64,000 nt of DNA from an uncultured Candidatus Saccharibacteria bacterium (GCA_964416765.1 CAYQEU010000001.1:475168-539167), one strand, 5' to 3'. Positions 12,151-48,880 are shown, numbered from the stretch's first letter. The notes: a model not told the origin generated them from the letters alone. Numbers and translations: made by a program.

Positions 12151-12161
12151 TAACCAAAACT

Positions 12162-12196: not shown

Positions 12197-12212
12197 CTAA
12201 CGACTAATCTGT

Positions 12213-12503: not shown

Positions 12504-12686
12504 CCGTGCCTGTAAATTTTCGAGGCCGGATTTAATTATTTTATTCCCTCCAAAAGATCCATAAAAATCATATCAGAAAGCCTAGTAAAATCAAGCATTT
12601 TTCAAAACTTGGCTTAAACAAGGCAAAAAACTCATTTAAAAAACCCCAATAAAATCAATGGGTTTAGGTACTAACAAAACCAAATT

Positions 12687-13664: not shown

Positions 13665-13668
13665 TCCT

Positions 13669-14799: not shown

Positions 14800-15719
14800 A
14801 TTTGCGAGGCAAAAACATTTTAATTACCGGTTCTAGTGGCTTCGTTGGATCGAACTTAGCCAAGGCCCTTTCAAGGCGAAGCGATATAAAAGTTACCTTA
14901 CTTGATACCAAGGCGCCCCGATATCCTGTTCCCGTAGGATGGCATTTCATAAAAGGATCCTTTGTCCAGCCTGATCTTCGCCGCAAAGCGCTGGCTGGAC
15001 AGGACCTTATTTTCCATCTGGGGGCCGTCGTAGGAGTAGAAACGGCTTTAAAGCAAAAAGAATTGCTGCGAAAAGTAAACTTAGATGCAACCATTGAGTT
15101 TATCGATGACGCTGTTCAGGCAGGGTGCAAAAAAATAGTATTTACTTCATCCTCAGAAATTTACGGCAACAGCAAAAAGATTCCATTCTTGGAATCGCAG
15201 CGAGCCAAACCGATATCAGATTACGGGAAGTATAAAATTTTAATTGAAAAGCATTTGCGGTCGCTGGTCAAGAAAGGCAAAATCAAAGCTACAGTAGTTC
15301 GGTTTTTTAATGTTTATGGGCCCGGGCAAAGGGATGCTTTCGTAATATCTCAATTTATTAAAAGAGCAGCGACTGGAAAACCTTTAATTATATTTGGCAG
15401 TGGCAACCAGACCCGAAGTTTCACCTACATTGATGACGCCATAACTGGATTACTTAAGGCCATGCGTTACGACCAAACTAATTTCGAAATCTTTAATATT
15501 GGCAGCGACCAAGAATTTTCCTTGTCCAAACTCGCTAATCTTATCGCTTCTTCCGAGTATCCGAAATTGAAAATTTTGTACCAGGATCCGACCATAAAGA
15601 GATATGACATAGCTAAACGAGTTCCCTCTTTGGAAAAGTCTAAGAAACTTTTAAAATTCCGGGCCAAGGTTTCTCTTCCCGCAGGACTGAGGTTTATGAA
15701 AGATGCAGAAACAGTTTGA
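14793..15719 (+). CDS. NAD-dependent epimerase/dehydratase (SDR family)
   Basis: ILITGSSGFVGSNL Rossmann; YGNSK (YxxxK) catalytic motif. Confidence 0.75.
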   Translation: MVNLRGKNILITGSSGFVGSNLAKALSRRSDIKVTLLDTKAPRYPVPVGWHFIKGSFVQPDLRRKALAGQDLIFHLGAVVGVETALKQKELLRKVNLDATIEFIDDAVQAGCKKIVFTSSSEIYGNSKKIPFLESQRAKPISDYGKYKILIEKHLRSLVKKGKIKATVVRFFNVYGPGQRDAFVISQFIKRAATGKPLIIFGSGNQTRSFTYIDDAITGLLKAMRYDQTNFEIFNIGSDQEFSLSKLANLIASSEYPKLKILYQDPTIKRYDIAKRVPSLEKSKKLLKFRAKVSLPAGLRFMKDAETV

Positions 15720-16965: not shown

Positions 16966-17752
16966 TCGATTTTTCGATCAGCCAAATTTCCAAAATGTTT
17001 TAAGGGAAGTGTTCTCTTTAAAAACTTCTGCTTTTAATTTTACCTTGGAAAATACAGATGGGTATATCAATATTCAAGAAGATAAAACAGGAATCTACTC
17101 AAATTTTATGGGCTATGGGGGTCCCATTATGGAGCGCCAAACCGGCAATATATCCTCTGTGCTTAGCGCTCTGCAACAGGAATATGGAAAAAAGTTTAGG
17201 CGTATCAAGCTTTACCCGTTCAATTCACAACTGCCTCATAACGGGTTCAAACCGGAGCAAACTTGGATTTTAGATTTAACAAAGTTTAATCTGGAAAACC
17301 TCAGTAAATCCGTAAGGTATGAAGTCCGAAAAGCAAAACAAAATGATGTATTAATCCGTCCTCTGGAGAAAGAAGAACTAGAATCGTTCTATAATATCTA
17401 CAAACAAACAGCTGCTCGGGTAGGCAGCAGTTATTTAACCCCATATCTGCTATTTCAAAAGCTACATGACATACCTGCATGCTTATTTCTTGGTGCATTC
17501 CACAAAAAAGAGTTGATTGCTACCAGCGTGTACCTACAATCTGACCAATATGTTTACTTCTGGTGGAATTCCTCAACAGATAAAGGACGATTACTTTCTG
17601 CTAATTACAGTCTTACCTTCGAAGCGATCAATTTATTTCAGAACAAGGGAATTTTGCACCTGGATATGGCTAGTTCCCATAATGAGAAAATACTCCGTTC
17701 AAAAGAAAACTGGGGTGCTACCCCAGCGAATTTTCTTAACCTATCTATTTAA
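16916..17752 (+). CDS. FemAB-like / GNAT-fold (Acetyltransf_6-like) acyl- or aminoacyl-transferase
   Basis: Size and pattern (YEVRKAKQNDV...YLQSDQYVYFWWNSS) reminiscent of FemAB/BioF2-like N-acyltransferases in sugar clusters; weak. Confidence 0.35.
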   Translation: MMKLSQIQQIPNPFLTNRFFDQPNFQNVLREVFSLKTSAFNFTLENTDGYINIQEDKTGIYSNFMGYGGPIMERQTGNISSVLSALQQEYGKKFRRIKLYPFNSQLPHNGFKPEQTWILDLTKFNLENLSKSVRYEVRKAKQNDVLIRPLEKEELESFYNIYKQTAARVGSSYLTPYLLFQKLHDIPACLFLGAFHKKELIATSVYLQSDQYVYFWWNSSTDKGRLLSANYSLTFEAINLFQNKGILHLDMASSHNEKILRSKENWGATPANFLNLSI

Positions 17753-18749
17753 CCATTGCTTCAGCAGGGTTAAATTCATAAGCGCGACGGGCATACTCAG
17801 GAAAATATTTGTGCACCAAGCCCTGCAATAATTTCATGTTATCAGGCTCGGGATTGGTCACTACTATAAAACCCGGGGATGATTCGTTGATATTGGTCCA
17901 GAGTTTGGCTCCGGCGCTGCTGGCAAAGTAAGCGGCGGCTGCGACATCCACTTTCTGCAAATCGAAACCAACAAACACATTGCCATTTTTGCTGACGGTG
18001 TCAGCGATCCCATACGCTGCGCTGCTATACCGGACATCTTTCAGCACTTGGTGGGAACCCTTTAGCTCTGCCCAAAATTTGGCCATCGCCTCATTCGTTT
18101 CTTCTGCTTCAGGGATGTCTGAAAAGTCGCTGTAGTACACTGATTCTTCAAACCTCCTCGGATTCGCTATGACTAGCCCTAGCTCGTCTGCTGAGACGTG
18201 AAAAGCTTTCTGGTCGCCTGCATAAAATAACTCTTGTTTTTCTGGCACATAGATCATTCCGTAATCCAACTTATTGCCTTTTTCATGGGCCAAGGAAATG
18301 CTGTAATCATTATATCCAGCCACATACGCCCTGGTGCCGTCTAGAGAATCCAAATAAAATCTAGATTCAGCCATTGGGTTACCGACTTTACCCTCTTCGC
18401 CTATGAAATAAGTCAGCTTTTCATCATTTACTTTTTTTAGCTCATCTAAAATCCGGGTTTGTGACTCCAGATCGGCCGCAGTCACGATATCGGTGCGGGA
18501 GTTTTCGAGCGGCTTTGTGTCTGCAACTACTGAATCTTTCTTTTCTACCAACAAAGCTCCGCCTTCAATAATCGCATCAAAAGCGTTGCGCAGGGATTTT
18601 TTCTTATCCGGGTCTTCTACAGTTGATTCTATCAAAATATAAAATCTATGAGCGATAGAATCTATTCTTTCAACATGGTCGCGCACTTTCTTCTCCGAGC
18701 TGGCCGAGAATTCAGACAGGGAGGATGAGCGTTCAAAATTATTTTGCAT
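17745..18749 (-). CDS. Inositol monophosphatase family protein (IMPase/CysQ-like) with N-terminal extension
   Basis: FYLDSLDGTRAYV (DPxDGT metal-binding) and WTNINES... motifs of IMPase superfamily. Confidence 0.6.
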   Translation of the reverse strand: MQNNFERSSSLSEFSASSEKKVRDHVERIDSIAHRFYILIESTVEDPDKKKSLRNAFDAIIEGGALLVEKKDSVVADTKPLENSRTDIVTAADLESQTRILDELKKVNDEKLTYFIGEEGKVGNPMAESRFYLDSLDGTRAYVAGYNDYSISLAHEKGNKLDYGMIYVPEKQELFYAGDQKAFHVSADELGLVIANPRRFEESVYYSDFSDIPEAEETNEAMAKFWAELKGSHQVLKDVRYSSAAYGIADTVSKNGNVFVGFDLQKVDVAAAAYFASSAGAKLWTNINESSPGFIVVTNPEPDNMKLLQGLVHKYFPEYARRAYEFNPAEAMVK

Positions 18750-18751
18750 TC

Positions 18752-19642
18752 TTAAAGAAGTTTATGATTTTTTAGCCACCCGATTGTAATTTCTAGGTTT
18801 TTCCTTTTCTGATAGTTGGCATCCTGGATTTCCAAAGATACGTGATACAGGGCTCTCGTCCTTTTTAGGCCAGATAAACATCGTGCTAAAACCTGTTCCG
18901 AAAAATCTCCTCGGGCTGGGGTTATTCCCTCATTATTATAACCTTTGGCTCCCGGGAAAGCGAGTCCGGCAAAGGAGCTGAAATGGTAATGTATTATTTG
19001 CCCTTGGATCGTACGGTAGTCGTTAAATTTAATTTTTTTGTTCTGGGCCAGAAAATTAGCTGCTTCAACCATCTTATTGGTAAAAGCCCAATGCCCAAAA
19101 TCCCAATTGATATATATGTTTTTAAATTTGCTAAATCCTTTAAAGTCTTGTGGGTACACGAAAATAGAATCAAAGTCAGTACCGTCATTGCCAATCACTG
19201 GCATATTCTCTATCGCCACTTTAACGGGCTTACCTTCTAAATACCTATCCAATTTTCCATAAAACGCCAACATTTTTTTCCGAATCAAAGGAAGCTTCTC
19301 CGGATCAAACTTATGAAGTGGCTGAATATAATTGGAATGCAGAATCACTTTCTCGATGCCTTCATTAGCCGCTAAATCCAAGTAACTATAAAGCAGATTC
19401 CGGAATCGGTGATCATCCAAATAATTAGCATTGTCAGTTGGGAAGTGAATACTAACTAAAGATCCAGGAAATCTTTTACGAACTTCCTGAATATTTTTGA
19501 CTATCCTTTTAAAAACCATGGGTGATTGGAGATTGAGCCCATCAAACAGGATTCCTTCTAACCCAAAATCATGACGCTTAATCAGAGCCTCAGGAATTTG
19601 GGACCGATCAGTTAACAGAAACGGAACTAAATACTTAATCAT
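18752..19642 (-). CDS. Sugar phosphate isomerase/epimerase, xylose-isomerase-like TIM barrel
   Basis: VKVAIENMP and DFGHW motifs typical of AP-endonuclease-2/xylose isomerase-like TIM barrel fold. Confidence 0.5.
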   Translation of the reverse strand: MIKYLVPFLLTDRSQIPEALIKRHDFGLEGILFDGLNLQSPMVFKRIVKNIQEVRKRFPGSLVSIHFPTDNANYLDDHRFRNLLYSYLDLAANEGIEKVILHSNYIQPLHKFDPEKLPLIRKKMLAFYGKLDRYLEGKPVKVAIENMPVIGNDGTDFDSIFVYPQDFKGFSKFKNIYINWDFGHWAFTNKMVEAANFLAQNKKIKFNDYRTIQGQIIHYHFSSFAGLAFPGAKGYNNEGITPARGDFSEQVLARCLSGLKRTRALYHVSLEIQDANYQKRKNLEITIGWLKNHKLL

Positions 19643-19644
19643 AA

Positions 19645-20328
19645 TTAGTCGCGTATTTCCCTGATCATTACAAAAGCTTCACATGCGCCGACATTATTCT
19701 TGCTTCCCCATAGCTTGGCGTTAAGCTTGATGGTTTCAAGTGAGCGAGGATGAGGAAACTCCCTTAATTCGCTGTTATAAGCTTTCATAGCTTGGAGCTT
19801 GTCTTCTAGTTCGCTTTCAATATTAACAAAGACATTGGGCAAGAAGGGTCGCTCAATACTAAAAGCCGACATTTCCGTACTGGAAAGGGTTTCGAAAGAA
19901 AGCAGCTGTTCCACTTTATTTTCGATTGGGCGGCAAGCAGTTAAGGCTGCTTGAAAAGCAATGCGATGATCAATATTCAAATCGCTCGCGTGATGAGTGT
20001 AAACAATGTTAGGTTTAAACTCTGCCACAGCCGTAGAGACTTTTTTCACTACATCCAAAAAATCAAGCCCGTCAAAACGGTTATCAGGAAGCTCTAATCT
20101 CAAACTCTGTTTGATTCCTAAGACATTGAGCGCTACTTCAGTCTCGGCAAAAGAGTCACTTTTAGTTATTTCAGACACTGGCTCATAGTAGTCTTGCCGA
20201 GAGCTTTTGCCGTCGCCCATTATCAAAACTGCAACCTGATCCCCGGCCTTAACATGCTTTCTGAGTGTTCCCCCAACCCCAATAATCTCGTCATCAGGGT
20301 GAGCCACGATAGCCAAAACTTTATTCAT
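19645..20328 (-). CDS. PIG-L/LmbE-family N-acetylglucosaminyl deacetylase (start moved to internal Met)
   Basis: VLAIVAHPDDE signature at N-terminus; HxxH later; upstream 14 codons overlap a predicted terminator so Met15 start preferred. Confidence 0.7.
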   Translation of the reverse strand: MNKVLAIVAHPDDEIIGVGGTLRKHVKAGDQVAVLIMGDGKSSRQDYYEPVSEITKSDSFAETEVALNVLGIKQSLRLELPDNRFDGLDFLDVVKKVSTAVAEFKPNIVYTHHASDLNIDHRIAFQAALTACRPIENKVEQLLSFETLSSTEMSAFSIERPFLPNVFVNIESELEDKLQAMKAYNSELREFPHPRSLETIKLNAKLWGSKNNVGACEAFVMIREIRD

Positions 20329-20348
20329 AAGAGTATTATAGTTTTTCA

Positions 20349-20390
20349 GGACAAAAAAATACAGGGCCAACCAAAGTGCGGTCAGCCCTG
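20349..20390 (-). terminator. Putative rho-independent terminator after RNHCP gene
   Basis: Minus strand: cagggc-loop-gccctg followed by tattttttt immediately after TAG stop. Confidence 0.4.
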
Positions 20391-20849
20391 CTAGTCTCGG
20401 TGCGGAACGCCGCCAACCCCGTAATAGGATAGCAGTACAGCGTCAGCAAGCGTCTGGTCGTTGCTGGCCAGTCCGAGTAATGCGTCCAGGGAATCGTCAG
20501 CCGCAATTCGATTACTGCTTTCCTTGTGACAGGAAACGCAGGAATGAATAATGCCGATTTCGCCGTCGTTCCTTATTTCAACCTCAAGAGGTTGCATGTT
20601 TCCACCGCAGATTGCGCTTCCAAGCCGCGAACCTACAGAGCTATCAACGTGCTTGCTCCACAAACACGTTGGACAGTGATTGCGATGACTTGAACCTGGC
20701 GCTAAGCCGGGTATCATCGCACGACAGTGGCTGCAACGGAAATCATTCCTTTTGTTCTTGGATTTTTCCAGCTTGCGAGCCGTTTTCAGGTCAAGCGAAT
20801 CATCATCTGCAAATCTCGCTTGATGCTTAAACGTTTTTGCCATGGACAA
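20391..20849 (-). CDS. RNHCP-domain zinc-ribbon protein
   Basis: Literal RNHCP motif (SHRNHCPTCLWSKH) plus CSHC and CVSCH Cys/His pairs. Confidence 0.65.
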   Translation of the reverse strand: MSMAKTFKHQARFADDDSLDLKTARKLEKSKNKRNDFRCSHCRAMIPGLAPGSSHRNHCPTCLWSKHVDSSVGSRLGSAICGGNMQPLEVEIRNDGEIGIIHSCVSCHKESSNRIAADDSLDALLGLASNDQTLADAVLLSYYGVGGVPHRD

Positions 20850-20872
20850 AGCCCTCCTTAACTTTGTGCATA

Positions 20873-20881
20873 ATTATAGCA
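20873..20881 (-). promoter_or_regulatory. Extended -10 element TGCTATAAT upstream of RNHCP gene
   Basis: Forward attatagca = reverse complement TGCTATAAT, ~24 nt upstream of start; SD-like aaggagg between. Confidence 0.45.
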
Positions 20882-20903
20882 CAAAAACGTTATTTTTGCA
20901 AGT

Positions 20904-21614
20904 CTATAAACCTCTGCTTTTATTGGGTTTTTTAAGCTTATTATTAAATTTAATAACCATATTTGAAATATTGGAGTCCAAAAGATAAGAATTGGCAATC
21001 ACACAGTGGCCTCCAATTGGACCATCGCAGTGTGTTAGGTATGGCCTTACCACTTCTCTTTTGCCTAATTTTTCGTACCCTTCGTTATAATCTCGGTTGG
21101 CCGAGCGGTAAACTTCTTCAAAGTCTAAACCATTTTTTTTGCACCATTGGTAAATTTCTTTTTCGAGCATAATTAACCAGCCATATTGAGTGGTTTCCCA
21201 TAGCTTTATTGCTTCTGTCGTTTCACTTCCGTCATAACATCTAACTTTGATTCCTGCCTTTTGAAAATAGCGAGCAGCTTTTTTGGCTTCCTTGCCGCCA
21301 AAGTACTTTACAAATGTTTTTAAACCTAATTCCAAATTTGGGTGAACGCCACGAACCGGACTATGCACAGATTTGCATTTTTTACTTGTTCCCACGGGGA
21401 CAGTGGAATGTATAATAGTTAATTTGGGACGGTATAACTTTTGATAACGTTTTACCTCAGCTATAAACTTATGACTATAACCAAAAGAAATATGCATCAC
21501 TTCATAGCCTCGGCCCTGAGGCTCAGAAAGTGTTAAATCTGCAATATCGCTTTTGATGATATTTGCTAAGGCCTGCCCTACCTCCCCATATCCTATAATT
21601 AGATGCTTATTCAT
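20904..21614 (-). CDS. NAD(P)-binding Rossmann-fold oxidoreductase (ProC/ketopantoate-reductase/6PGDH-like N-domain)
   Basis: N-terminal IIGYGEVGQALA GxGxxG; remainder not confidently assigned. Confidence 0.35.
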   Translation of the reverse strand: MNKHLIIGYGEVGQALANIIKSDIADLTLSEPQGRGYEVMHISFGYSHKFIAEVKRYQKLYRPKLTIIHSTVPVGTSKKCKSVHSPVRGVHPNLELGLKTFVKYFGGKEAKKAARYFQKAGIKVRCYDGSETTEAIKLWETTQYGWLIMLEKEIYQWCKKNGLDFEEVYRSANRDYNEGYEKLGKREVVRPYLTHCDGPIGGHCVIANSYLLDSNISNMVIKFNNKLKKPNKSRGL

Positions 21615-21671
21615 ATTTAAATAATTATAATAAAAATGCTCTTAAAATCAATCTTGTTAAAAACAAATGTC

Positions 21672-31006: not shown

Positions 31007-31930
31007 CTAAGACTTGCAAAACGCTTCCAGGCATGTCTGCAACACCGGCACCGTGGGGAAAATTTCACTTTCCCCCGCCGGCTCTCGCAACAGACCTGTC
31101 TTATGCACTTCTGCGGGACTCGCCAGGTGCGAATACTGGTTCGCCTTCCTGAGTGAGTCAGCGTGGTACACAAACACGTCCCGGTCCAGAAAACCGCGCG
31201 GGCTGGACTCGCAGTCCATAAACCGCACCTCCCCTTCGGGAATTTCGATTTCCTGGACTCGCAGGAGGTCAATGCCCCGGGTTTTCTCATCAATGTTGAT
31301 GAGACCCCGGTGTTCGACTACCCGAGTACCCCCGCCAATGAGCTGGCAGACAATTCTGAGGGTCTTTTCACCTGGCATCTTCGCGCGGTGGATATATCCG
31401 TCGCACGAACCATGGACGTTGACGCCTTGGTGGACCAGGCGCAGCTTTTGATAGTTGTTGATGTTCCAAAACAGGTCCTCGAACCGAGGCCCCGCATTGA
31501 AGCGGACAACTTTGCCGTCGACCATCACCGCCATCTCCTCAAGTCCTTCCCGGTACATGAGGTGGGGCATGTTAAACCATTGCGCGTAGTCATCCGCTAA
31601 ACCGGATGAAATCGCCACATGGTTGCCATAGGTTGGCGCCGCAGAGTCCTTGTGAAAAAGGGGCAATAAGCGAGTGTCCCCCTGCCGGTAGATATTCATC
31701 GTACCGCCAGCGGCCCAGCGCCAGTACCCTTTTTTCGCGAACTCCCCATTTGGATTGGAGATGATATCCCGCGTTGGTCCGTTGTAGAAAACTTCCGGAT
31801 TCTCCTCGAAGGTGACTTCAAGCAGATCTTCGGTGCTCTTGGTAATTTGGCACGCCGCCAGAATGAAGGGGTAAGTTTTTTGCTTGTCAAAAATATCCGA
31901 CAACCTTAACTGTGAGGATTGTTCTGTCAT
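31007..31930 (-). CDS. Conserved hypothetical protein
   Basis: Long ORF with ordinary composition, no motif I can assign confidently. Confidence 0.45.
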   Translation of the reverse strand: MTEQSSQLRLSDIFDKQKTYPFILAACQITKSTEDLLEVTFEENPEVFYNGPTRDIISNPNGEFAKKGYWRWAAGGTMNIYRQGDTRLLPLFHKDSAAPTYGNHVAISSGLADDYAQWFNMPHLMYREGLEEMAVMVDGKVVRFNAGPRFEDLFWNINNYQKLRLVHQGVNVHGSCDGYIHRAKMPGEKTLRIVCQLIGGGTRVVEHRGLINIDEKTRGIDLLRVQEIEIPEGEVRFMDCESSPRGFLDRDVFVYHADSLRKANQYSHLASPAEVHKTGLLREPAGESEIFPTVPVLQTCLEAFCKS

Positions 31931-32089
31931 TGTATCTCCTTTATTGCCGCCTCAAGCCGTCTGGTGCGTATTCGCCCCAGCCGGTTTAATGATTCGGCTT
32001 TTTGTGGATTTGTCTTTGTTTAAAATAGTTACCGACGCAGATACGAAGGTAACCATTAATTATAGCACAAATTAACAAAAATGTCAATA

Positions 32090-37311: not shown

Positions 37312-37770
37312 TTATCCTGAGTTAATTCTGCTGTATTCACTGTTAGCGAGATTGTCTGCCTGCCGGGCCCAGTACGTGCCCCGGTCATGGTGGTAATATT
37401 TCACTGTCGCCATAAACCGCGCTTCCATGCGTTTCACTTCATCAAACCATTTCTTTACCTGCGGCGACCTTATGCCATACTCGCCGTTCATGTGGCGGAT
37501 TACCAATTCCGAATCCATCCATACCTCAACCTGGTTGCGGCAAAATTCCACCGCGCTATCGAGCGCGAAGATGAGCCCGGCGTACTCCGCTTCGGGTACG
37601 GTACATTCGCCCAAGTACTTCGCCCGTTGGTCAATTATCTGGTAATTGATATCCAGGAGCAGGAACGCGCAAGCCGCTTTACCGCGCGTGGCGTGATACC
37701 TGTCGCCGGGACGGTTAGGCACCCGACAGCAAGCGTCCGATATGATTTTAACCGTGTCGAATTTAGCCAC
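37312..37770 (-). CDS. Ribonuclease HI-family protein
   Basis: DEDD residues in RNase H order: SDACC..., AEYAGLIFAL, MDSELV, HHD...ADNLA; 152 aa. Confidence 0.65.
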   Translation of the reverse strand: MAKFDTVKIISDACCRVPNRPGDRYHATRGKAACAFLLLDINYQIIDQRAKYLGECTVPEAEYAGLIFALDSAVEFCRNQVEVWMDSELVIRHMNGEYGIRSPQVKKWFDEVKRMEARFMATVKYYHHDRGTYWARQADNLANSEYSRINSG

Positions 37771-40472: not shown

Positions 40473-42152
40473 CTAGGAGCTAACAATCGCGCCTTTCGGG
40501 TACGCGTCAATTTCCGATTGGGAGAATAAGATAATGCTAGCTGGTTTGACCTTGCGGTTCTGGAAAGCGGTAAAGGTCATCGGCCGGACCTGTCCGCCGA
40601 GGATAATGTACACGGTCGGGTCGGTACGGCTCTTAATCACGGTATTATCGGTTGGCAACGCCAAGCCGCCATCAGGGAAACCGGCAACATCCTGGTCAGA
40701 CAAGACAATGATATTTTTGAATGACAGAGCGCGGTTGGCGAATACCTGCGCGGTCAGGCCGTGTTTTACCCCGTCCTGGAGCAGATACACGGTTTGGCTC
40801 GAAGAAGACTTTATCAAGCTGCCGCTGAGCGGGGTTACCAATCCATTCTTGGTGTAAGTATCGATTTCCGAATCGGGCACGATCTGCATTTTGGCAGCGG
40901 CGTTATACTGCGCGAAGCTTAACGGAGTAAACAGTTTTAAAGTACCGCCCTCTACCAAGTAAACAGCGGGGTTCTTTTGTCCACGAATTACACTTCCTTC
41001 GCTTGGTGTCAGCAGGTTACCAGCGGGGAAGATGTTGGCATCAGATTCGCTAACGGTAATGGCGCTTGAAGCATTCAATTTGCGCTGGGACAGGACAAAA
41101 CTGGATACCGGATGGCGAATGTTGTTTTCGAATACGAATAGCTGGCCGTTAACGCTGATTACAGTATTATCCGGCAAACCGTACGTGCCTCCGTCAGGAT
41201 AAGTCTGTATTTCGGTGGATGAAGCCACCTGCGCCGTATTCGGATCAAGATGGCGGGCTTGGGCCACGAAATTCGGCACTACTTGGCGCGTGCCATTCTG
41301 GATAACATAGAGGTTGCCATCGCCGCTAACCCTTATCAGAGTCCCGTTGGCAAAACGGAACCAAGAATTGAAGAACCGCCAGAAATTATAGTTACCGTTG
41401 AACACGTGTGGAGTATAACGGTAGAGGGCCGCGGTTGCCGCATTGCCCAAAGTAACGTTCTGCTGGGCCGCGACACCGTTGTAGCCGCCCAAAGTATTAT
41501 CGAGCACTATAGTATCGCCCACCTTGGAAGCGCCGCCGTTGTAAAACGGCCCGCGTCCTCCGGGGATGGTAAACGAACGCATCAACGATTTTGGAGCGCC
41601 CAAATAGCGGCTGCCCGATTCATCTAGCCCACCGAATAGCTGGTAGTAAAATCCGCGATAGATGTCGCCACAAGCGCTGCTATCCGGACAGCCGAAGCCG
41701 AGGGAAAAGTCCAAAGCGCGCTGCAAACGGGAGGGGTCAGAAAAAGTACCAGTGATCAGGCTCTGCTCTTTGTTCAAAGTAACCAGCATGACCTGCGGGT
41801 TAATGCCCGCTGCCTGTGACGCGTCCCAAATGAGCTGCGCGGCGGTACGGATTTGCGGCAGGTTCGGTTCCGGGTCTTCCAGTGTCTGTTTGACTGAGAC
41901 TTCCTGCGGTTCTTTGAGCTGGACTAAAAAGTCAGGCGAAGTATTGGCCAGGACGCTTCCTTTGCTGACCAGAAATTTTTGGATACCGTCAGCGCCGCCA
42001 AAAGTGCGGGTATCGGAAAAGGCCGCGTCGGAGATGAGGATGTTTGGGTTAAAGTTTGAATCCACGTCCGCCTGGGCGTGTACGGCTGCTGGCGTAAAAA
42101 TGCTTAAGCTAAAAATGAGAAGGGCTGCAAAGGTAACAAGTTTTTGTTTCAT
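40473..42152 (-). CDS. Secreted protein with N-terminal domain of unknown function and four ~65-aa C-terminal repeat modules
   Basis: Signal peptide MKQKLVTFAALLIFSLSIFTPAAVHA; repeats of form NLYVIQNGTRQVVPNFV...SSTEIQTYPDGG / PAVYLVEGGTLKLF...DSEIDTYTKNG / QTVYLLQDGVKHGL...SDQDVAGFPDGG / PTVYIILGGQVRPM...SQSEIDAYPKGA. Confidence 0.6.
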   Translation of the reverse strand: MKQKLVTFAALLIFSLSIFTPAAVHAQADVDSNFNPNILISDAAFSDTRTFGGADGIQKFLVSKGSVLANTSPDFLVQLKEPQEVSVKQTLEDPEPNLPQIRTAAQLIWDASQAAGINPQVMLVTLNKEQSLITGTFSDPSRLQRALDFSLGFGCPDSSACGDIYRGFYYQLFGGLDESGSRYLGAPKSLMRSFTIPGGRGPFYNGGASKVGDTIVLDNTLGGYNGVAAQQNVTLGNAATAALYRYTPHVFNGNYNFWRFFNSWFRFANGTLIRVSGDGNLYVIQNGTRQVVPNFVAQARHLDPNTAQVASSTEIQTYPDGGTYGLPDNTVISVNGQLFVFENNIRHPVSSFVLSQRKLNASSAITVSESDANIFPAGNLLTPSEGSVIRGQKNPAVYLVEGGTLKLFTPLSFAQYNAAAKMQIVPDSEIDTYTKNGLVTPLSGSLIKSSSSQTVYLLQDGVKHGLTAQVFANRALSFKNIIVLSDQDVAGFPDGGLALPTDNTVIKSRTDPTVYIILGGQVRPMTFTAFQNRKVKPASIILFSQSEIDAYPKGAIVSS

Positions 42153-42161: not shown

Positions 42162-44042
42162 TTAATTAATGTATGCGTCGCCTTTGGAGAAACTGGCTAT
42201 ATCCTGGTCGGCGACATAAACGACCGGGAAGACCTGCAAACCGCGGCTAACGTAAAAATTATAGTTAATCGGATGCAACACGCCCCCGACAACCCAATAA
42301 ACGGTTGGGTTCTTGCCGGTGCGAAGCAATGTCCCTTCCGGCGGGGCAAGGAAGCTTCCAAGCAGCCAGGAGTTAACTTCAGTATAACTTAAAGTATGCA
42401 CATCAGCGAAGTTAAATCCGCGCAGTAAAAATACCTGATAAGTAACAGGAAGTCTCAGACCCTTCGACATGTAATACACAGCCGCGTCGGCATCCAGTTT
42501 GACCAAAGTGCCATCCAGCGGAGTCGCGTAATCCCCTTCCGGAAAGTTATTCAAGTCCGATTGGGCAACGGTTTTTATAGTCGCATTGGGAAAACGCTGT
42601 TCTTTGACGAACGGTGAAATCAAATGTCGCTTACTCCCAGAAATATAATAGTAGGGATCAGAGCTACCCACGCGAACCACGTCGCCTTCGTTGATCTGAA
42701 CAGCGAGCGAAATGTCTGTGGCGAGCGCTTTGGCCGCGTTGATGCGTCCGGCACCAAGCAGTCCCCGGCAGGAACCGCCACCGCACTGGCTGAGGTTAAA
42801 GTCATCAATGTTGTCAGCGCTCGCAATAATGGCGTCGCGGATTTGCGCGTTACTGGCGGAGGGGTTCTTGCTCTTAATCAGCGCCGCTTCGCCGGTCACA
42901 AAAGGAACCGCAAGTGAAGTGCCAGAAGCAAACGCGTAAGCATTGGAAGCGTAGCGCCCGCTGAGCGGATCGTGGTTGATAGTAGACAAAATCTTTTTTC
43001 CCGGAGCGGCCACGTCAACGCAGACTTTTCCGTAATTGGCGAAGTCGGGTTTAATATCGTTCAGGTCAGACGCTGTAACGCCGATAATCATGTTTTGGCC
43101 GTTGTCATCACAAATCGGGAAAACCGGGGTGGTATCCAAATTGCCGCCATTACTGGCCGCGTCGTTCCCAGCTGCCGCGATAATTACCACGTTTTTGTTG
43201 TACGCGTAGCTAATGGCGTTTGCTAAAGTGGTGTCATGCGAAAAGCCAATGCCGCCCAAAGACATATTGATGATATTGGCGCTGTGGTCAGCCGCCCAGA
43301 CAATGCTTTCGGCAACACTTGAAGCAGTTCCTGAACCGCCAGAATCCAACGCCTTAACCGGCATCAAGGTTATCTGCCAGTTGGTGCCCGCAATCCCCTT
43401 GCCGTTGTTCGGCACCGCGGCAATCACACCCGAGACTAAAGTGCCGTGGCCGTTATCATCTGAGTTGATCCCCGTGCTGATCGCGGTATTCCTAATAAAG
43501 TCGTAACCGTCGCGGTATGCTACCCCGCTCAAATCTGAATGGGTTTCATCAATACCCGTGTCGATTACAGCAACGATGTTGGTAAAGCTTCCGGTGGTCT
43601 TGCTCCATGCCGCGGGAAACTTAGCTTTGGCCAAGCCCCACTCATTGTTGGTGTCCATTTCATTGTTGGTGAACCCCGGATCGTTTGGCGTGACCACAGT
43701 GTCGTGCGAATTCACCACCGGGTCAATTTCCAAATAGTCATAATTGGCAGCCAGTTCCTGGCTTAGCTGGGAATATGTTTTGCCCGAATCAAATGAATAA
43801 ACATTCTGGAAAGCCTTGAGCTTGGAAAAGGCAAACTTCTTCTCTATATTAGTGGCGCCGGCTTGGGAAAGTACGGCGGCGTCAGTGGATTTTAGTTTAA
43901 CCACGTAGTGCCCGTTTTCCCCCGCAGCAGAAACAGCGGAGTCCGCGTAACTCAAAGTCGGCGTTGCGCCAAAAGCCAAAACCAGCCCCGTAATAATGAG
44001 GGCTGTGGCGGTGAACCTAAATTTTAAATATGAAGGTAACAT
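42162..44042 (-). CDS. Secreted subtilisin-like serine protease (peptidase S8) with C-terminal repeat modules of the same type as neighbour
   Basis: Signal peptide; catalytic triad motifs VAVIDTGIDETHSDL, HGTLVSGVIAA, GTSLAVPFVTGEAALIKS; C-terminal repeats DPYYYISGSKRHLISPF...SDLNNFPEGD etc. Confidence 0.85.
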   Translation of the reverse strand: MLPSYLKFRFTATALIITGLVLAFGATPTLSYADSAVSAAGENGHYVVKLKSTDAAVLSQAGATNIEKKFAFSKLKAFQNVYSFDSGKTYSQLSQELAANYDYLEIDPVVNSHDTVVTPNDPGFTNNEMDTNNEWGLAKAKFPAAWSKTTGSFTNIVAVIDTGIDETHSDLSGVAYRDGYDFIRNTAISTGINSDDNGHGTLVSGVIAAVPNNGKGIAGTNWQITLMPVKALDSGGSGTASSVAESIVWAADHSANIINMSLGGIGFSHDTTLANAISYAYNKNVVIIAAAGNDAASNGGNLDTTPVFPICDDNGQNMIIGVTASDLNDIKPDFANYGKVCVDVAAPGKKILSTINHDPLSGRYASNAYAFASGTSLAVPFVTGEAALIKSKNPSASNAQIRDAIIASADNIDDFNLSQCGGGSCRGLLGAGRINAAKALATDISLAVQINEGDVVRVGSSDPYYYISGSKRHLISPFVKEQRFPNATIKTVAQSDLNNFPEGDYATPLDGTLVKLDADAAVYYMSKGLRLPVTYQVFLLRGFNFADVHTLSYTEVNSWLLGSFLAPPEGTLLRTGKNPTVYWVVGGVLHPINYNFYVSRGLQVFPVVYVADQDIASFSKGDAYIN

Positions 44043-44762
44043 TTATTTATATTTGCCCATCCAGACGCCAAGGCGAATGCGGAAAAGGTCCACAAACGAC
44101 TCGAGGAAAGCGGTCATGGGAACGTGCCCCCCGCCAAACTCGTTCCACGAAACCCCCACTTCCTTAATCTTGTAGCCATGAGTCCGTGCGATGGCTAGCA
44201 CTTCCATGTCGAACGCCCACCCGAGAATGGTGACCCGCTTGAAAATCTCCAGCGCGGCCTCGCGCTTGAACGCTTTAAAACCCAGCTGAGTATCATAAAT
44301 TCCCGGCAACAACACAAAGCGAATCAACAAGTGGCTCAATTTTCCAAGCACTTGGCGCTTGAAGCTTTGTTTGACTTTAGTCAGGTCAGGATCAAGTTCC
44401 CGCGACCCGATGACTACGTCGTAACCCTGGTCAAAAAATGGGATAAATTTGCTGATTTCGGAAATTGGCGTGGCGTTGTCAGCGTCCATGAACATAATGA
44501 TGTCGCCGGAAGCATTCTCCAAAATTCCCCTTTTCACACTTCGGCCTTTCCCGCCTTCCTTATAGTTAACAGCCTTGGCCTTTTGCACAGTGGAGCTTTC
44601 CAGCTGCTTTACGACGTCATAGGTATGGTCGCTCGTGCCGTTGACCACTACGACAATTTCGTAGTCGAAAGCTTGAGTTTTTAAAAAACTGTCGATATCA
44701 GTGAGGGTTTTCGCGATGCGAAGCTCTTCGTTGTACGCGGGTACAACAACGGAAAGTTTCAT
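44043..44762 (-). CDS. GT2 polyprenyl-phosphate glycosyltransferase (DPM1/GtrB-like)
   Basis: MKLSVVVPAYNEELRI..., DADNATP DxD-type motif; 239 aa soluble GT2. Confidence 0.8.
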   Translation of the reverse strand: MKLSVVVPAYNEELRIAKTLTDIDSFLKTQAFDYEIVVVVNGTSDHTYDVVKQLESSTVQKAKAVNYKEGGKGRSVKRGILENASGDIIMFMDADNATPISEISKFIPFFDQGYDVVIGSRELDPDLTKVKQSFKRQVLGKLSHLLIRFVLLPGIYDTQLGFKAFKREAALEIFKRVTILGWAFDMEVLAIARTHGYKIKEVGVSWNEFGGGHVPMTAFLESFVDLFRIRLGVWMGKYK

Positions 44763-44805
44763 TTTTATATAATTAATGCAGCCCTTAAATAACAGGACTT
44801 CCTTA

Positions 44806-44814
44806 ATTATACCA
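44806..44814 (-). promoter_or_regulatory. Extended -10 element TGGTATAAT upstream of GT2 gene
   Basis: Forward attatacca ~44 nt upstream of start at 44762. Confidence 0.4.
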
Positions 44815-44879
44815 AATCTTCCCGGAACGGGCGATTTGGCGAAACCCTATATTAAAACGGGTCAGCAGGCGTTTTGTTA

Positions 44880-44921
44880 CAAAAAAAGAAGCGCTAACAG
44901 ACCGGGGTCCGAAGCGCTTCT
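44880..44921 (-). terminator. Strong rho-independent terminator after high-GC gene 44995..46170
   Basis: agaagcgct-[gaccggggtc palindrome]-agcgcttct hairpin followed on minus strand by TTTTTTT. Confidence 0.7.
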
Positions 44922-44994
44922 TCATGTTCACCCATCATCTACGTTGCCTGTTGCTGACCATTTCAACGATGAGTAAATTCCATTAAAAGATGAA

Positions 44995-46170
44995 TTAGGG
45001 AGGCGTGATGCGCGGCGGGACGGGAGTGATTTTCTTCAAATTGCCTCCCTTGAACACCTCGTATCCGATAAAGATAGCGACGGGGATAACGAATACCCAC
45101 CAGTGCCCCTTTATCCATTTCCAGAGTCCGCCCTTCTTTTGGTTCTTGAAGAGGGCTTGGAAAGTTACGTCGTGGGTTCCCTGCGCGTTAATGCACGGGT
45201 CAACCTCGACACGCAAATACACCAGTTGCTCCCCGACGATTTCGGGAAGCTTGCTCCGAATTTCCGACATCCAGTCAATTTTCGAGTTCTGCCCGTTGGC
45301 ATCCCCGAACTTGGCTATGACGCCCGCCTTGATGTCGGCGGCAACCTGCTCGACCGTGAAGGTCGGCATTTTGCGGAGTTGGTTAACGTCCTCCATATAG
45401 GGGGCGTTCACCGGCAGCACGTTGCTGCCAACCCGGAAGTAAACACCGGTCGGATTTCCGGGGATGCACTTGCAATCCTCGGTGGGAACCGGCTTCGTGA
45501 TGACCTGACGGTCGGTGATGACCTTACAGCCATCGTCCGTCTCAGTCACCCGAATAGTGTAACCATTGCTATCCGTTTCATCGTGGCTCGTCACCCGCGG
45601 TTGGGTGAGCGGCTTGCACGACGCATCAAAGGTGTAACCGGCGCGGACTTCCCACGTCGCGTTACCGCAGTTGATTGTCATCACGATGGTTTTCGTAATT
45701 TTCACGCGACGAACGGTAATAAGTTCGCCGTGGATATCACGATAACCGCGAGTGATACGGTAGACATAAAGCCTGCCGCTTCTCGAAACGGTCTCAAGGT
45801 CAATGTAGCTTTTCCCGGTTTCAGTCAGGATGTCATCCACAAGGATGTCCTGCTCGTCGTCCTGGGCGGGAGCCACATCTTCTCCCAGCGAACGGTCAAC
45901 CTGAGGGTCGCCGCCAACTTGGAGTTCCGAAGGGTTCCCCACTCGCAGACCGTTGCGCCGCATATAGTCGAGGATTTCTCCCCGGACATTCGGGTTACGG
46001 TAGTAAGCGGGAGTGCCGGGCTTCGCACTCGGCACATACTTCTGGGTTTTCGCCGCGTTGCTGCGGCGGGTTTGCGCGTTCGCCGACTGGATAATCGGCG
46101 TCAGCGGAGCAAATAACATAAGCCATACGGTCGTCGCGATGATGACCGCCTTCATATTGTGTTTCATCAT
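44995..46170 (-). CDS. Hypothetical exported protein with C-terminal TM anchor; markedly higher GC than flanks
   Basis: Signal peptide MMKHNMKAVIIATTVWLMLFAPLTPIIQSANA; C-terminal HWWVFVIPVAIFIGYEVF helix + Pro-rich tail; sampled 60-nt windows ~60-65% GC. Confidence 0.6.
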   Translation of the reverse strand: MMKHNMKAVIIATTVWLMLFAPLTPIIQSANAQTRRSNAAKTQKYVPSAKPGTPAYYRNPNVRGEILDYMRRNGLRVGNPSELQVGGDPQVDRSLGEDVAPAQDDEQDILVDDILTETGKSYIDLETVSRSGRLYVYRITRGYRDIHGELITVRRVKITKTIVMTINCGNATWEVRAGYTFDASCKPLTQPRVTSHDETDSNGYTIRVTETDDGCKVITDRQVITKPVPTEDCKCIPGNPTGVYFRVGSNVLPVNAPYMEDVNQLRKMPTFTVEQVAADIKAGVIAKFGDANGQNSKIDWMSEIRSKLPEIVGEQLVYLRVEVDPCINAQGTHDVTFQALFKNQKKGGLWKWIKGHWWVFVIPVAIFIGYEVFKGGNLKKITPVPPRITPP

Positions 46171-46201
46171 TATCTTTCACCTCTTGTGTATTAGACGGCG
46201 G

Positions 46202-47002
46202 TCACCGTCCATTTTTTCCTATGACCACGCCCTTATCGCTAAGAGCTTCATCAACCGCGTAAGGGAACAGCCAACGCATGTCCCGGTCGCGGTTAGAAAT
46301 TATCGTGTTACGTGCGACGCCCCATGTATTCAGGACATCGTCGTCAACCACCGCGAAAGTCTTCTTCATGTCATACGAGGAATCCTCGTACTTCCTTGAA
46401 AACAGAACTTTCAGGTGTCCGATACGCTCGGAAACCACGATACCCTTCATGTCGTACCACTCTATCTTGATGGATACAGTGATAGGAACGTGTTCGTAAC
46501 GCTGCGCTAACTTGTTCAGGAACTCTTCCTCGTAACGAATTACTTGGTAGTCCCGTTCCCGGTCAACGCCGCCCTTGTATTGGGCGCCGGAGTCAATGAC
46601 CCGGCGAACCCAGTTCGGAAGCTTGGGAACGCTCCACGCGACTTGGTTTGCCACGTTTTGCATCTGCTGCTTCTTTTCGATGTCCACGCGCGCTCGCGCG
46701 ATGTTGTTTTGGGCGACGCGCACTTTGGCTAACGCTTCCGCGTCATCCACCCAGTACGCGTTTCCGTAGAATGCCTCACCGGTAACAACGATGCGCCGCG
46801 TGCGGCGGCTATCGTTCTCGTCAACCAGTTCGACGCCATAAGCCTCTTTGAGTTTCTGGGCGATGACCAGCCGTGCGCCGGTCGAGTCGTCACGGAAACC
46901 CTGAAGTTCCAAGCTCGCGTAAGTCGTTTTGGACTGCGCGAAGCTGGGAACAAAAGAAGCAACGATAATTGCGATTGCCAATATGGCTTTAACTTTGTTC
47001 AT
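46202..47002 (-). CDS. Hypothetical secreted protein (start at internal Met giving signal peptide)
   Basis: MNKVKAILAIAIIVASFVPSFAQS signal peptide from Met21 of ORF-track ORF; co-oriented 31 nt upstream of 44995 gene. Confidence 0.55.
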   Translation of the reverse strand: MNKVKAILAIAIIVASFVPSFAQSKTTYASLELQGFRDDSTGARLVIAQKLKEAYGVELVDENDSRRTRRIVVTGEAFYGNAYWVDDAEALAKVRVAQNNIARARVDIEKKQQMQNVANQVAWSVPKLPNWVRRVIDSGAQYKGGVDRERDYQVIRYEEEFLNKLAQRYEHVPITVSIKIEWYDMKGIVVSERIGHLKVLFSRKYEDSSYDMKKTFAVVDDDVLNTWGVARNTIISNRDRDMRWLFPYAVDEALSDKGVVIGKNGR

Positions 47003-47257
47003 CTTTTGTGTCCTCCAACACGTGATTAGTCCCAGCTTCGACCAATCTTTTTCAAAGAGCATTTAGCTCTGAACCTGAAACGCTTAGCTGTTAGCGTTTA
47101 TATCTTGCGTGCCGTGAGCTCTCGCTCGCGGCCCACTAACGAGCAGGCCGCGGCGGAATGCCGGGCACATTCCTATCCATTTCGCGCTTTTGCTCAGCGA
47201 AATGGGTAAAAATCTACCCGAAACTCCCAAAATTTCCCTTATTCAATTTGACCTCAT

Positions 47258-47286
47258 ATTATATCACTTTTCTACACATTTGTCAA
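47258..47286 (-). promoter_or_regulatory. Near-consensus sigma70-type promoter TTGACA-N17-TGaTATAAT on minus strand, ~190-250 nt upstream of the secreted-protein gene pair
   Basis: Reverse complement of 47258-47286 reads TTGACAaatgtgtagaaaagtgaTATAAT; exact -35 and -10 hexamers, 17-nt spacer, extended TG. Confidence 0.5.
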
Positions 47287-47340
47287 TACTATGATTTAGG
47301 GCCTAAATAGGCCCAAAATTCGTAAAATATCAATATACTT

Positions 47341-47377
47341 AACGAAAAGGGATTCCCATAACCAGTATAGGAATCCC
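47341..47377 (-). terminator. Rho-independent terminator after sortase gene
   Basis: gggattcc-13nt loop-ggaatccc followed on minus strand by ttttcgtt. Confidence 0.5.
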
Positions 47378-47434
47378 ATATTATAGCTGAAGTTGCGGCT
47401 CGACCCAATGCCAAGATAGGCTTGGTAGATAGGC

Positions 47435-48880
47435 TTAGAAGCCAACCTGGGTCTGGCGGCCGAACAGGACCAAACGGCGCGCGGAGGTATCCACCGGCCA
47501 GCAGGTAGACAATGCTACGCGCGGGTCAGGGGTCTGCAGGAACTGGGCCTGGTCATTAGCTTGGTATTCCTTGCGGCCATCAACCACATAGTGAATGGTG
47601 GCTTTGCGTCCGTCTTTGACGGTAACTGTAATGGTGAAAGAAGTGCCGTCTTTGATGTTACCCAAACCGCGGAATACGTTCTTGTATGGGTTCTTGTCCC
47701 AGACGTATCCGCTGGAGTGTCCGGAGATATACGCGGTTCCAGCTTGGCTTGGCAAAGCCGTACCTGGGTAATGGACTACGCCCTTGTGCAAATCAGCGTC
47801 GAAGTTCTTGGTGTCCGAAGTAAAGATGATTGGAACCGAAATCTTGTAGCCCGGAATGTCCAAATGTCCCGGCTGGCTTTCGTCAATGTCCAGACTCATA
47901 AGCGAGTCGCTACCGGTGGCGCCGGCGGCTGAACGCGGAACAGTAGTGGAAGCGCCGGCAACCTGGCCACTGGCGGTAGTACCGCTGCCATCCACAAACG
48001 AATAGTTGCCCGGGTTCTGGTATCCCCCGCTGCCTGGCGCAGTCAACGCGTTGGCGATCCCGCCCTGGCTAAGCTTCAGGCTTCCGGCCGCCAAGCGGTC
48101 GGAAATAATCTGGCGGTCGAGGTAATTATCAACAATAGCTTTCTGGTTGTCAGTCAAAGCTTTGCCGGTCCATGGGTTTACCCCATTCAGGATAGTCTGG
48201 CCGTCAGGCTGACCAAGACCGAGAGTGTCATACGCTTTCGGGTTGAGGTTAAACAGGAACTTTTCAAAGTTGGTCAAACCGTTGCCGGAAAGGTCATTGT
48301 CCATGTCGATAACGGAAGCGTCGCTCACGTCATAAAAGAACTGCTGGATCCAGGTGGCGTAAGCGGCCGCCTGCTGCTTCTTCAGGTCAGCCATGCGCTG
48401 GTTGTTTTTTGACTGGCTTGCAACCTGGTTGCTGGAGGAGTTGCTCAAAAAGTTGGCAACGGAAAAGCTTGAGAAAAAGTATTGATAGATAAACAAGCCG
48501 ACCAAAAACACAGCGACATACGGTACCACGGATTTCGCGATCCGGAACGCACGGGCTTTCGGGTTCTTTTCGTTTTCCAACTCGATGGGCTGGTGCGGCG
48601 CTTCTTCGTCAGTTTCTTCAGAATGACCAGAAGGCATGGGTTCGGGAGCGGCAAAATTATCCGGGCGGGTCTGGCGCGCGGCCGCGGCCATGTCTTCCGC
48701 GCTTGGCGGTTCATCAGCCACATGAGTAGAAATAGCGTCAATAACAGGCAGGTTGGAAGGACCCGGCTCATGATGGGTTACCTGAGAGCTTTCCATGGTA
48801 GATTCAGACATATTCAACATCGCCGCTACTTCAGCAGTGGTGTCAGGAAAGGTCGGTTTTTCGGGATTGATATTAGGCAT
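47435..48880 (-). CDS. Sortase-family transpeptidase with long acidic/Pro-rich cytoplasmic N-terminus and one TM anchor
   Basis: C-terminal catalytic domain: YISGHSSGY (His), ALSTCWP (TLxTC Cys), RRLVLFG (Arg); TM VVPYVAVFLVGLFIYQYFF. Confidence 0.75.
   Translation of the reverse strand: MPNINPEKPTFPDTTAEVAAMLNMSESTMESSQVTHHEPGPSNLPVIDAISTHVADEPPSAEDMAAAARQTRPDNFAAPEPMPSGHSEETDEEAPHQPIELENEKNPKARAFRIAKSVVPYVAVFLVGLFIYQYFFSSFSVANFLSNSSSNQVASQSKNNQRMADLKKQQAAAYATWIQQFFYDVSDASVIDMDNDLSGNGLTNFEKFLFNLNPKAYDTLGLGQPDGQTILNGVNPWTGKALTDNQKAIVDNYLDRQIISDRLAAGSLKLSQGGIANALTAPGSGGYQNPGNYSFVDGSGTTASGQVAGASTTVPRSAAGATGSDSLMSLDIDESQPGHLDIPGYKISVPIIFTSDTKNFDADLHKGVVHYPGTALPSQAGTAYISGHSSGYVWDKNPYKNVFRGLGNIKDGTSFTITVTVKDGRKATIHYVVDGRKEYQANDQAQFLQTPDPRVALSTCWPVDTSARRLVLFGRQTQVGF

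Follow-up and report, generated by a model that had tools for sequence, protein, structure and literature searches.

The 64,000-nucleotide stretch analysed here (hereafter the window), from an uncultured Candidatus Saccharibacteria bacterium, contains, between a sortase gene and a GT2 gene, a two-gene operon, A-B, whose products are predicted to be exported envelope proteins and whose transcript would begin with a structured 5' leader of about 250 nt. Comparison with orthologous loci (designated by L numbers) reveals clear covariation in this leader and indicates that it is a conserved structured RNA, previously undescribed. The whole unit is on the minus strand and consists, in 5' to 3' order, of the sortase terminator, a palindrome, the promoter, the leader, gene A, gene B and a terminator:

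48880..47435, minus strand: sortase gene (Pfam Sortase)
47377..47349, minus strand: the sortase gene's own terminator
47299..47314, no strand: DNA palindrome
47258..47286, minus strand: sigma-70-type extended -10 promoter
47003..47252, minus strand: structured 5' leader, about 250 nt, with its 5' end inferred from the -10 box
46202..47002, minus strand: gene A, open reading frame (ORF) for a 266-aa protein, predicted to be exported
44995..46170, minus strand: gene B, ORF for a 391-aa protein with a predicted signal peptide and membrane anchor
44881..44923, minus strand: intrinsic terminator

A preliminary description of this DNA had placed the two genes at 44995-46170 and 46202-47062. The two ORFs do exist, in minus-strand orientation, but gene A extends upstream only as far as 47002. 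Its start is almost certainly the ATG at 47002..47000, because this codon lies 8 nt downstream of GGAGGA and opens a signal-peptide start (MKK or MNK) that is common to all orthologues. The start at 47062 was rejected; this in-frame ATG is located inside a leader hairpin and is missing from the orthologues.

The promoter, TTGACA-17-TGATATAAT at 47286..47258(-), matches the consensus at 12/12 positions and carries an extended -10 element (TTGACA-17-TG-A-TATAAT), in agreement with its first description as essentially perfect. It is the sole promoter-like site in 44000-48000, a region in which shuffled sequences give 3.8 sites at the looser threshold of the scan. The pattern TTGACA-17-TGnTATAAT is kept exactly in all of the eight distinct leader-bearing sequences, and near-consensus A-B promoters are also found in the distant loci L022 and L023. 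At the other end of the unit, the terminator at 44923..44881 (GAAGAAGCGCU...AGCGCUUCUUU followed by a U7 run, about -22 kcal/mol) is as strong as had been claimed. In 10/10 loci, gene B is followed by a terminator of comparable strength (-19 to -30 kcal/mol), and the sequences of these terminators are unrelated to each other, except among the window's three close relatives. With its own promoter and terminator, the pair is indeed a self-contained expression unit.

A perfect 16-bp palindrome, GGGCCTATTTAGGCCC at 47314..47299, lies 12 nt upstream of the -35 box. It corresponds to the hairpin (gggcct/aggccc stem) noted earlier just upstream of the -35; the palindrome is present, but it is located upstream of the transcription start and therefore outside the leader RNA. 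It may serve as an operator or UP-like element, or it may be what is left of a hairpin. When the spacers of L001, L003, L009, L010, L013, L015 and L019 were compared by eye with positions 47299-47314 of the window, a TTTTGGCYTATTTTAGGC-like, partly palindromic motif was seen between the sortase terminator and the -35 box in most of the orthologous loci inspected, at a variable distance from the -35 (~12 to ~70 nt). This recurring motif may be the binding site of a regulator.

Only two perfect promoters of the TTGACA-17-extended -10 kind occur in the window. The second one, TTGACA-17-TGCTATAAT at 32087..32059(-), is found directly after a terminator hairpin; the segment that it heads (31007-32087, minus strand) comprises a leader of ~120 nt (z = -3.1) and an ORF of 307 aa, with no signal peptide by eye and no Pfam or NCBIfam match.

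Structure, covariation and distribution of the leader RNA

The predicted folding energy of the window leader is -102 kcal/mol (z = -6.2 versus shuffles). Eight distinct orthologous copies, representing ~5 independent lineages, were aligned (alignment A4, together with the model-based alignment A7), and pairing was assessed with RNAalifold and by explicit pair counting, using as controls pairing partners slid by 1-3 columns and 500 shuffles. Across the eight leaders, 57 pairs were modelled in seven main helices; (i) 93.8% of their cells are paired, versus 34-45% in the slid controls, (ii) 21 pairs show compensatory changes on both sides, versus 4-7 in the slid controls, and (iii) for four of the five pairing measures, the number of compensatory pairs among them, none of the 500 shuffles matches the observed values. 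Furthermore, the alifold energy is -76 kcal/mol in the sense and -54 kcal/mol in the antisense direction, and 58 cells are G-U pairs, which would be A-C on the other strand. The structure is therefore attributed to the transcript of the gene strand. As judged from this covariation, the leader is a conserved structured RNA not described before, and it has the conserved structured domain backed by covariation that characterizes the aptamer of a riboswitch class. The cis-regulatory RNA leader, which the preliminary description had raised as a possibility, is supported by the strong covariation among these eight orthologues.

The elements of the leader, in window numbering and on the minus strand, are the following:

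47164..47218, minus strand: H1, long irregular hairpin with the covarying apical part CCAUUUCG...CGAAAUGG (20 pairs, 6 compensatory, 96% paired)
47159..47174, minus strand: nearly invariant block (invariant columns in A4 and A7)
47116..47162, minus strand: multi-helix domain H2-H3-H4
47078..47099, minus strand: H5, hairpin AAACGCU-AACAGCUA-AGCGUUU with a conserved loop (2 compensatory pairs)
47025..47046, minus strand: H6, hairpin AUUGGUC-GAAGCUGG-GACUAAU (compensatory changes in 6/7 stem pairs)
47008..47021, minus strand: H7, hairpin GUGUU-GGAG-GACAC, displaying the Shine-Dalgarno (SD) sequence

The nearly invariant block (47174..47159) has the 16-nt sequence AGGAAUGUGCCCGGCA, and its 13-nt core AAUGUGCCCGGCA is identical in 8/8 sequences, amid flanking intergenic DNA that shows no visible alignment. 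The block is unchanged even where its pairing partner differs (L001, L015). Such an invariant stretch at the junction, between flanks that cannot be aligned, argues for a sequence-specific interaction, through tertiary folding, a ligand or a protein. In the adjoining multi-helix domain, H2 (GGC/GCC) does not vary across the sequences, so that covariation is uninformative, whereas H3 (GCGGCC.../...GGCCGC; 9 pairs, 98.6% paired) shows G-U/A-U wobble and one compensatory pair. H4 (GAGC-GAGA-GCUC) has two compensatory pairs among its four, with the stem GAGC/GCUC in the window, L003, L013, L015 and L019 and AGGC/GCCU in L009, L001 and L010, and a loop that is of the GNRA type in most lineages. GUGCC and GGCAC could form an alternative pairing; both sides are invariant, so covariation is uninformative in this case as well.

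Three stable hairpins had been proposed in the leader from the sequence of the window. Those with the stems ccatttcg/cgaaatgg and cgcggcc/ggccgcg are real helices, as attested by covariation or G-U wobble. The third, ggaatg/cattcc, was rejected as a conserved pairing, its bases belonging to the long helix H1 and to the nearly invariant block.

Further downstream, the loops of H5 and H6 are complementary (CAGCU:AGCUG in the window clade, CAGCA:UGCUG in L001, L010 and L013, with one covarying pair), and a loop-loop kissing interaction between the two hairpins is probable. The SD sequence GGAGGA (47016..47011) has its GGAG in the loop of H7, a hairpin of just -4 to -6 kcal/mol whose pairing is kept by differing stems (GUGU/ACAC, GGAU/AUCC, GGGU/ACCC, GUAC/GUAC and GUAU/AUAC). 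At the other extremity, a UGAC able to pair with the invariant 5' GUCA is present in every case, either in a local 5'-terminal hairpin (L001, L010, L022, L023) or in a conserved distal UUUGAC (L013, L015, L019), and the 5' end of the window clade can form a UCAAA:UUUGA pairing (47252-47249 with 47056-47052 in the window). These partners suggest that the 5' end of the leader is sequestered by pairing, without covariation. A long-range 5' GUCA:UGAC helix is possible but consists solely of invariant or broken pairs and is thus unsupported.

In one lineage, represented by L019 (positions 1430-1500), other hairpins stand in place of H5 and H6. They have a duplicated GCACUU/AAGUG segment in common and could allow an alternative pairing of the terminator/antiterminator type, unique to that lineage.

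Rfam/Infernal searches matched no family. Indeed, Rfam 15 at gathering thresholds gave zero matches over the whole 64-kb window, the region 44700-47500 at E<=10 gave only chance matches to eukaryotic small nucleolar RNAs, viral RNAs and small RNAs (14-20 bits, versus gathering scores of 36-100), and no orthologous leader was matched at E<=5. The covariance model of the leader, R1, finds one copy per locus (193-263 bits) and nothing further, either in the rest of the window or in the orthologous loci. In the distant L022/L021, an H1-like hairpin is weakly recognisable with R1 and is the sole part of the leader recovered, and R1 gives no match in the distant L023 or L025; in the distant lineages of the B family, the promoter is near consensus and the leader is still long. 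A scan of genome contigs with an exact pattern of the RNA core produced one true match, L010 (an uncultured Candidatus Saccharibacteria metagenome-assembled genome), and the same scan of metagenome contigs yielded only WBZR01012126.1, which is L009. Two other pattern matches were dismissed as chance: one within a Flavobacteriaceae coding region among the genome contigs, the other in a GC-rich phage contig among the viral contigs, which the covariance model rejected. Literature searches found no described RNA motif of Saccharibacteria or of the candidate phyla radiation, nor these proteins. The leader motif is genuine and absent from Rfam, and its distribution is narrow, limited to one Saccharibacteria subclade and one operon.

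Products, composition and inheritance of the operon

Both proteins carry N-terminal hydrophobic signal-type segments and are devoid of recognisable domains, as had been noted: profile searches against Pfam, NCBIfam and PDB sequences returned no match for A or B. Protein A has a signal peptide (...SFA/QS), is basic and contains no cysteine in the window, the family as a whole being mostly free of it; its family shares 18-31% identity between lineages (alignment A6), is rarer than that of B and was found only in this same operon. Protein B has a signal peptide ending in AQT, the conserved motifs YY, PQ, DEED and CxN..W, and an ectodomain with six cysteines, four of which occupy invariant alignment columns. 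The C-terminal membrane anchor and proline-rich tail reported in the preliminary description are confirmed in B as HWWVFVIPVAIFIGYEVF, followed by KGG and PVPPRITPP (PRITPP). Homologues of B form three clusters among 5.8 billion proteins in a word-indexed search and ten among 1.84 billion representatives in a profile search. The AlphaFold2 model of B, built with 12 sequences, is beta-rich with a helical insert (mean predicted local distance difference test score 67.7), and a Foldseek search of this model against PDB retrieved no similar solved structure (best E 0.2, template-modelling score below 0.12). A search for sortase sorting motifs with the expression [LIVN]Px[TSA][GANS] gave none that is conserved in any A or B family member, and the order at the C-terminus of B, a membrane helix and then KGG...PRITPP, is unlike that of an LPXTG-type sortase substrate. 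The best explanation of these features is that both are basic, exported envelope proteins, A being secreted and B, with its disulfide-rich ectodomain, being anchored by its C-terminal helix. No other proteins of the locus evolve as fast as A and B, whose identities are 18-31% and 27-49%, respectively, compared with 63-81% for GT2, 80-81% for rmlA and 50-64% for the S8 peptidase.

The preliminary description had interpreted the pair as a horizontally acquired surface or effector module, marked by a foreign high guanine plus cytosine (GC) content and by its own expression signals. The contrast on which it drew, 55-65% GC against 40-50% in the flanks, was overstated. Gene B has 55.6% GC (GC at third codon positions, GC3, 0.70) and gene A 53.1% (GC3 0.64), versus 49-55% overall in the neighbouring genes (GT2 49.3%, sortase 54.1%, rmlD 55.2%); the short intergenic spacers alone are at ~37-41%. 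It is true that B has the highest GC and GC3 of the genes at 22-64 kb, but the offset from the genes beyond 22 kb (mean 50.6%, standard deviation 2.3) is about two standard deviations for B and about one for A, and the codon-usage distance of both genes falls within the range of the neighbours. Furthermore, GC3 and the use of C-ending (NNC) codons are raised in A and B in 4/4 orthologous loci tested, more strongly in the low-GC relatives. In the AT-richer L001, L013 and L015, the GC3 of A and B exceeds that of the neighbours by 0.10-0.25: 0.47 (A) and 0.54 (B) versus 0.26-0.33 in L015, 0.42 and 0.52 versus 0.31 in L001, and 0.51 and 0.52 versus 0.38-0.41 in L013. C-ending NNY codons are enriched likewise, nearly doubling in L015 (0.60 versus 0.32). 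That the offset persists against the background of each host genome argues for a maintained property of A and B, not a relic of transfer. It could have arisen by translational selection, if the operon is highly expressed, or by GC-biased conversion, if this surface locus undergoes recombination.

The genuine compositional anomaly of the window is a block at ~3.7-21.6 kb. Apart from a few higher-GC ORFs inside it, the genes of this block (3700-21650) have 37-43% GC, versus ~51% elsewhere; they encode a seven-transmembrane histidine kinase, a nitroreductase-like protein together with ThiF and an unknown protein of 498 aa, a Glu/Leu dehydrogenase, an APH-type phosphotransferase, two DegT aminotransferases, an epimerase and an inositol monophosphatase. 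The block may be an acquired aminosugar or modified-peptide cluster.

The synteny of the operon points in the same direction as its host-relative composition. All related contigs with flanks have the gene order rmlB-rmlC-rmlD-rmlA-sortase-[long intergenic leader]-A-B-GT2-S8 peptidase-558aa-flippase, which is kept in full in L001, L009, L010, L013, L015 and L019, and the A-B slot is unchanged even at 27-33% identity of B to the window copy. The distant L022/L021 and L023 retain the sortase-A-B-GT2 core, with an A of the usual size; L025, distant as well, has a gene for 389 aa at the place of A. The surroundings are those of an envelope glycopolymer locus, with rmlABCD, several GT2, a GT4 (MraY/WecA type), Wzy_C, a flippase, a GT1, a cytidylyltransferase-HAD protein, S8 and S41-PDZ peptidases and the sortase. 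Presence and absence were compared among the relatives recovered, and neither patchy presence nor a different location was found. The same slot in all of them therefore identifies the pair as an old, vertically inherited part of the envelope locus of this lineage.

The best explanation of these data is thus that the A-B operon was inherited vertically within one Saccharibacteria subclade, in the core of the envelope glycopolymer locus. Acquisition as a foreign cassette would be in line with the high GC and GC3 of B, with the extreme rarity of both families, which have no homologues outside the clade, and with the transcriptional self-containment of the unit. It is nevertheless very improbable: slot and gene order are the same in every lineage recovered, down to 27% identity of B, the GC excess is small with neighbour-like codon usage, the GC3 excess follows each host genome and not a common donor value, and the truly atypical block lies elsewhere in the window. 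No tRNA gene occurs in the 64-kb window, and no Pfam domain of mobility genes was found in the 36 window proteins scanned, some 20 ORFs (mostly outside the neighbourhood of the cassette) and flanking repeats not being covered by this search. The proteins scanned belong to envelope-biosynthesis, sugar-metabolism, signalling and housekeeping families, the lone match related to mobile elements being an RNase H-like RVT_3 domain (37312-37770).

Two other genes of the envelope locus may be mentioned. The RVT_3 domain is carried by an ORF of 152 aa (37312-37770, minus strand) that adjoins a YgjP-like metallopeptidase gene. The S8 peptidase gene is followed in each of these loci by the gene for a conserved exported protein of 558/559 aa, located at 40473-42152(-) in the window; Pfam has no family for this protein, and NCBIfam gives just a faint EccB-like match below threshold.

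Possible action of the leader and comparison with known systems

The consensus extended -10 promoter, the displayed consensus SD sequence, the enrichment in C/G-ending codons and the strong terminator would together provide strong and discrete expression of A and B. The leader probably exerts a post-transcriptional effect in cis, on the stability of the A-B mRNA, its translation or both, and this probability is divided about equally between two options. In the first, a specific factor (a small ligand or a protein) would bind at the invariant multi-helix junction and modulate expression. In the second, the leader would be a constitutive stabiliser and translation enhancer, as in the mRNAs of surface-layer (S-layer) or outer-membrane proteins. 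An action on stability or translation is favoured because no convincing switch is seen, given the weak H5, the lack of an anti-SD sequence and the exposed GGAG.

Several points weigh against this interpretation. Transcription start, transcript abundance and leader integrity are deduced from sequence; the covariation comes from eight sequences of ~5 lineages, and H2 and the lower part of H1 are invariant, hence unsupported either way. The leader presents no clear OFF-state and no conserved anti-SD sequence, and H5 is an unreliable attenuator (-4 to -7 kcal/mol), with the U-run missing in the window clade, L015 and L019. As regards high expression, the effective number of codons of A and B does not stand out in the window, the GC3 could also be raised by GC-biased gene conversion in a surface locus subject to recombination, and the proteins lack the hallmarks of S-layer proteins, both being small and without SLH or wall-binding domain, and B having six cysteines and an anchor.

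That the leader is a new, lineage-specific class of sensing RNA (a riboswitch or a protein-responsive leader) gating the production of A and B is put forward tentatively. A classical riboswitch working by transcription attenuation, in which H1-H4 would be the aptamer (for instance of a second messenger) and H5 with its U-run a conditional terminator, is unlikely. A multi-helix junction, invariant nucleotides and covarying stems are typical of aptamers, the H5 loop is conserved, H5 is followed by a U6 run in L001, L010 and L013, and a precedent exists for surface proteins, since cyclic di-GMP riboswitches lie upstream of sortase-dependent adhesins in Clostridioides difficile and control their expression. 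On the other hand, the U6 run is confined to those three loci, the window clade having UUUG in place of a U-run, L015 an interrupted run (UUAUUU) and L019 a short one, and H5 is separated from the U-run by a spacer of 3-4 nt and is far weaker than the real terminators after gene B. Being weak and without a conserved U-run, H5 is therefore a poor intrinsic terminator or attenuator. Moreover, no conserved antiterminator pairing was seen, and no Rfam riboswitch was matched even at E<=10.

Slightly less probable still is that the part of the leader at about 47252..47078 is mainly a stand-alone or 5'-UTR-derived small RNA (UTR, untranslated region), with A-B expressed by read-through. The very strong promoter leads straight into a compact structured domain whose sequence invariance goes beyond the needs of a helix, and an AU-rich single-stranded linker (AAGAUAUAA) and the weak hairpin with U-tracts offer possible points of processing or termination. 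However, conservation and covariation extend without interruption over H6 and the SD hairpin as far as the start codon, each locus has a single copy of the motif, invariably immediately upstream of gene A, and no other A-B promoter is visible: the TTGAC(A) conserved after H5, considered as a second promoter, has no -10 partner. Finally, conservation at the DNA level (regulator sites) or through an upstream ORF, to which the palindromic element upstream of the promoter and an AUG in the invariant block (AUGUGCCCGGCA) opening a 28-codon ORF in the window would lend themselves, is very improbable, as the AUG has no preceding SD sequence, substitutions are compensatory in stems and not placed at third codon positions, the G-U pairs and the strand asymmetry of 22 kcal/mol favour a gene-strand transcript, and a leader peptide is rejected because indels in the 3' flank of the block shift the frame between close relatives (GGCA-UUCC in the window, GGCAAUUUCC in L009, GGCAAUUGCG in L001).

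The genomes of Saccharibacteria and other Patescibacteria are very small, and no regulatory RNA described for them was found in the searches made. A large, conserved and structured leader would in this respect be an entry point into the control of the surface by these epibionts, and the covariance model R1 allows new genomes to be annotated for the motif. If the leader were indeed a sensing element, the envelope or host-contact proteins of an epibiotic bacterium with a reduced genome would be coupled to a metabolic or host-derived signal. Proteins A and B are candidates for abundant surface components. In the case of this operon, the combination of high GC and an own promoter was a misleading cue for horizontal transfer.

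Compared with known systems, the operon resembles genomic islands in its self-contained promoter and terminator, its above-average GC and its orphan proteins; it differs from them in its conserved synteny, in a window free of tRNA genes, in the lack of mobility domains among the proteins scanned and in a compositional offset that is relative to the host. With factor-binding leaders and riboswitches, it shares a multi-stem domain with invariant junction nucleotides, placed in the 5' UTR of surface-protein genes adjoining a sortase gene, whereas it has no Rfam match at any threshold tried and no convincing expression platform, and it is confined to one Saccharibacteria subclade and one operon. 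Leaders that act as 5' stabilisers include the 5' UTR of Escherichia coli ompA, the Bacillus aprE leader and the cryIIIA STAB-SD. The A-B leader is similar to these in preceding a gene for an exported protein, presumably highly expressed, in its pairable 5' end (GUCA with a nearby or distal UGAC) and in its exposed SD-like element, but it is much longer and more elaborate, its 5'-end pairing amounts to 4-5 bp without covariation, and in the window clade its initial ~25 nt are predicted to be single-stranded.

Lactobacillus S-layer proteins are made efficiently, which has been attributed to unusually stable transcripts, and in at least two species of the genus the stability of the S-layer mRNA has been ascribed to a long 5' UTR with a stabilising secondary structure; a biased codon usage has been noted for these genes, and two consensus promoters in one cited study (PMC3666127). 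The A-B operon is like these slpA-type cassettes in its consensus-like promoter, its long structured 5' leader, its biased codons and its fast-evolving, predicted exported envelope product. Indeed, a promoter matching at 12/12 positions, a leader of ~250 nt with z = -6.2 and an excess of GC3 and NNC codons correspond to S-layer-type expression, though the effective number of codons is unremarkable. The products do not correspond to S-layer proteins: A and B are small, with no SLH or other Pfam domain and no wall-binding domain detected, and B is cysteine-rich and appears to be membrane-anchored. The A-B leader differs further in keeping its sequence blocks and multi-helix junction over deep divergence, beyond what a generic protective hairpin would show. 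As far as its conservation and covariation allow, the leader can be classed as a new family of an already known kind of element, the structured leader acting in cis, located ahead of an orphan and fast-evolving pair of envelope genes.

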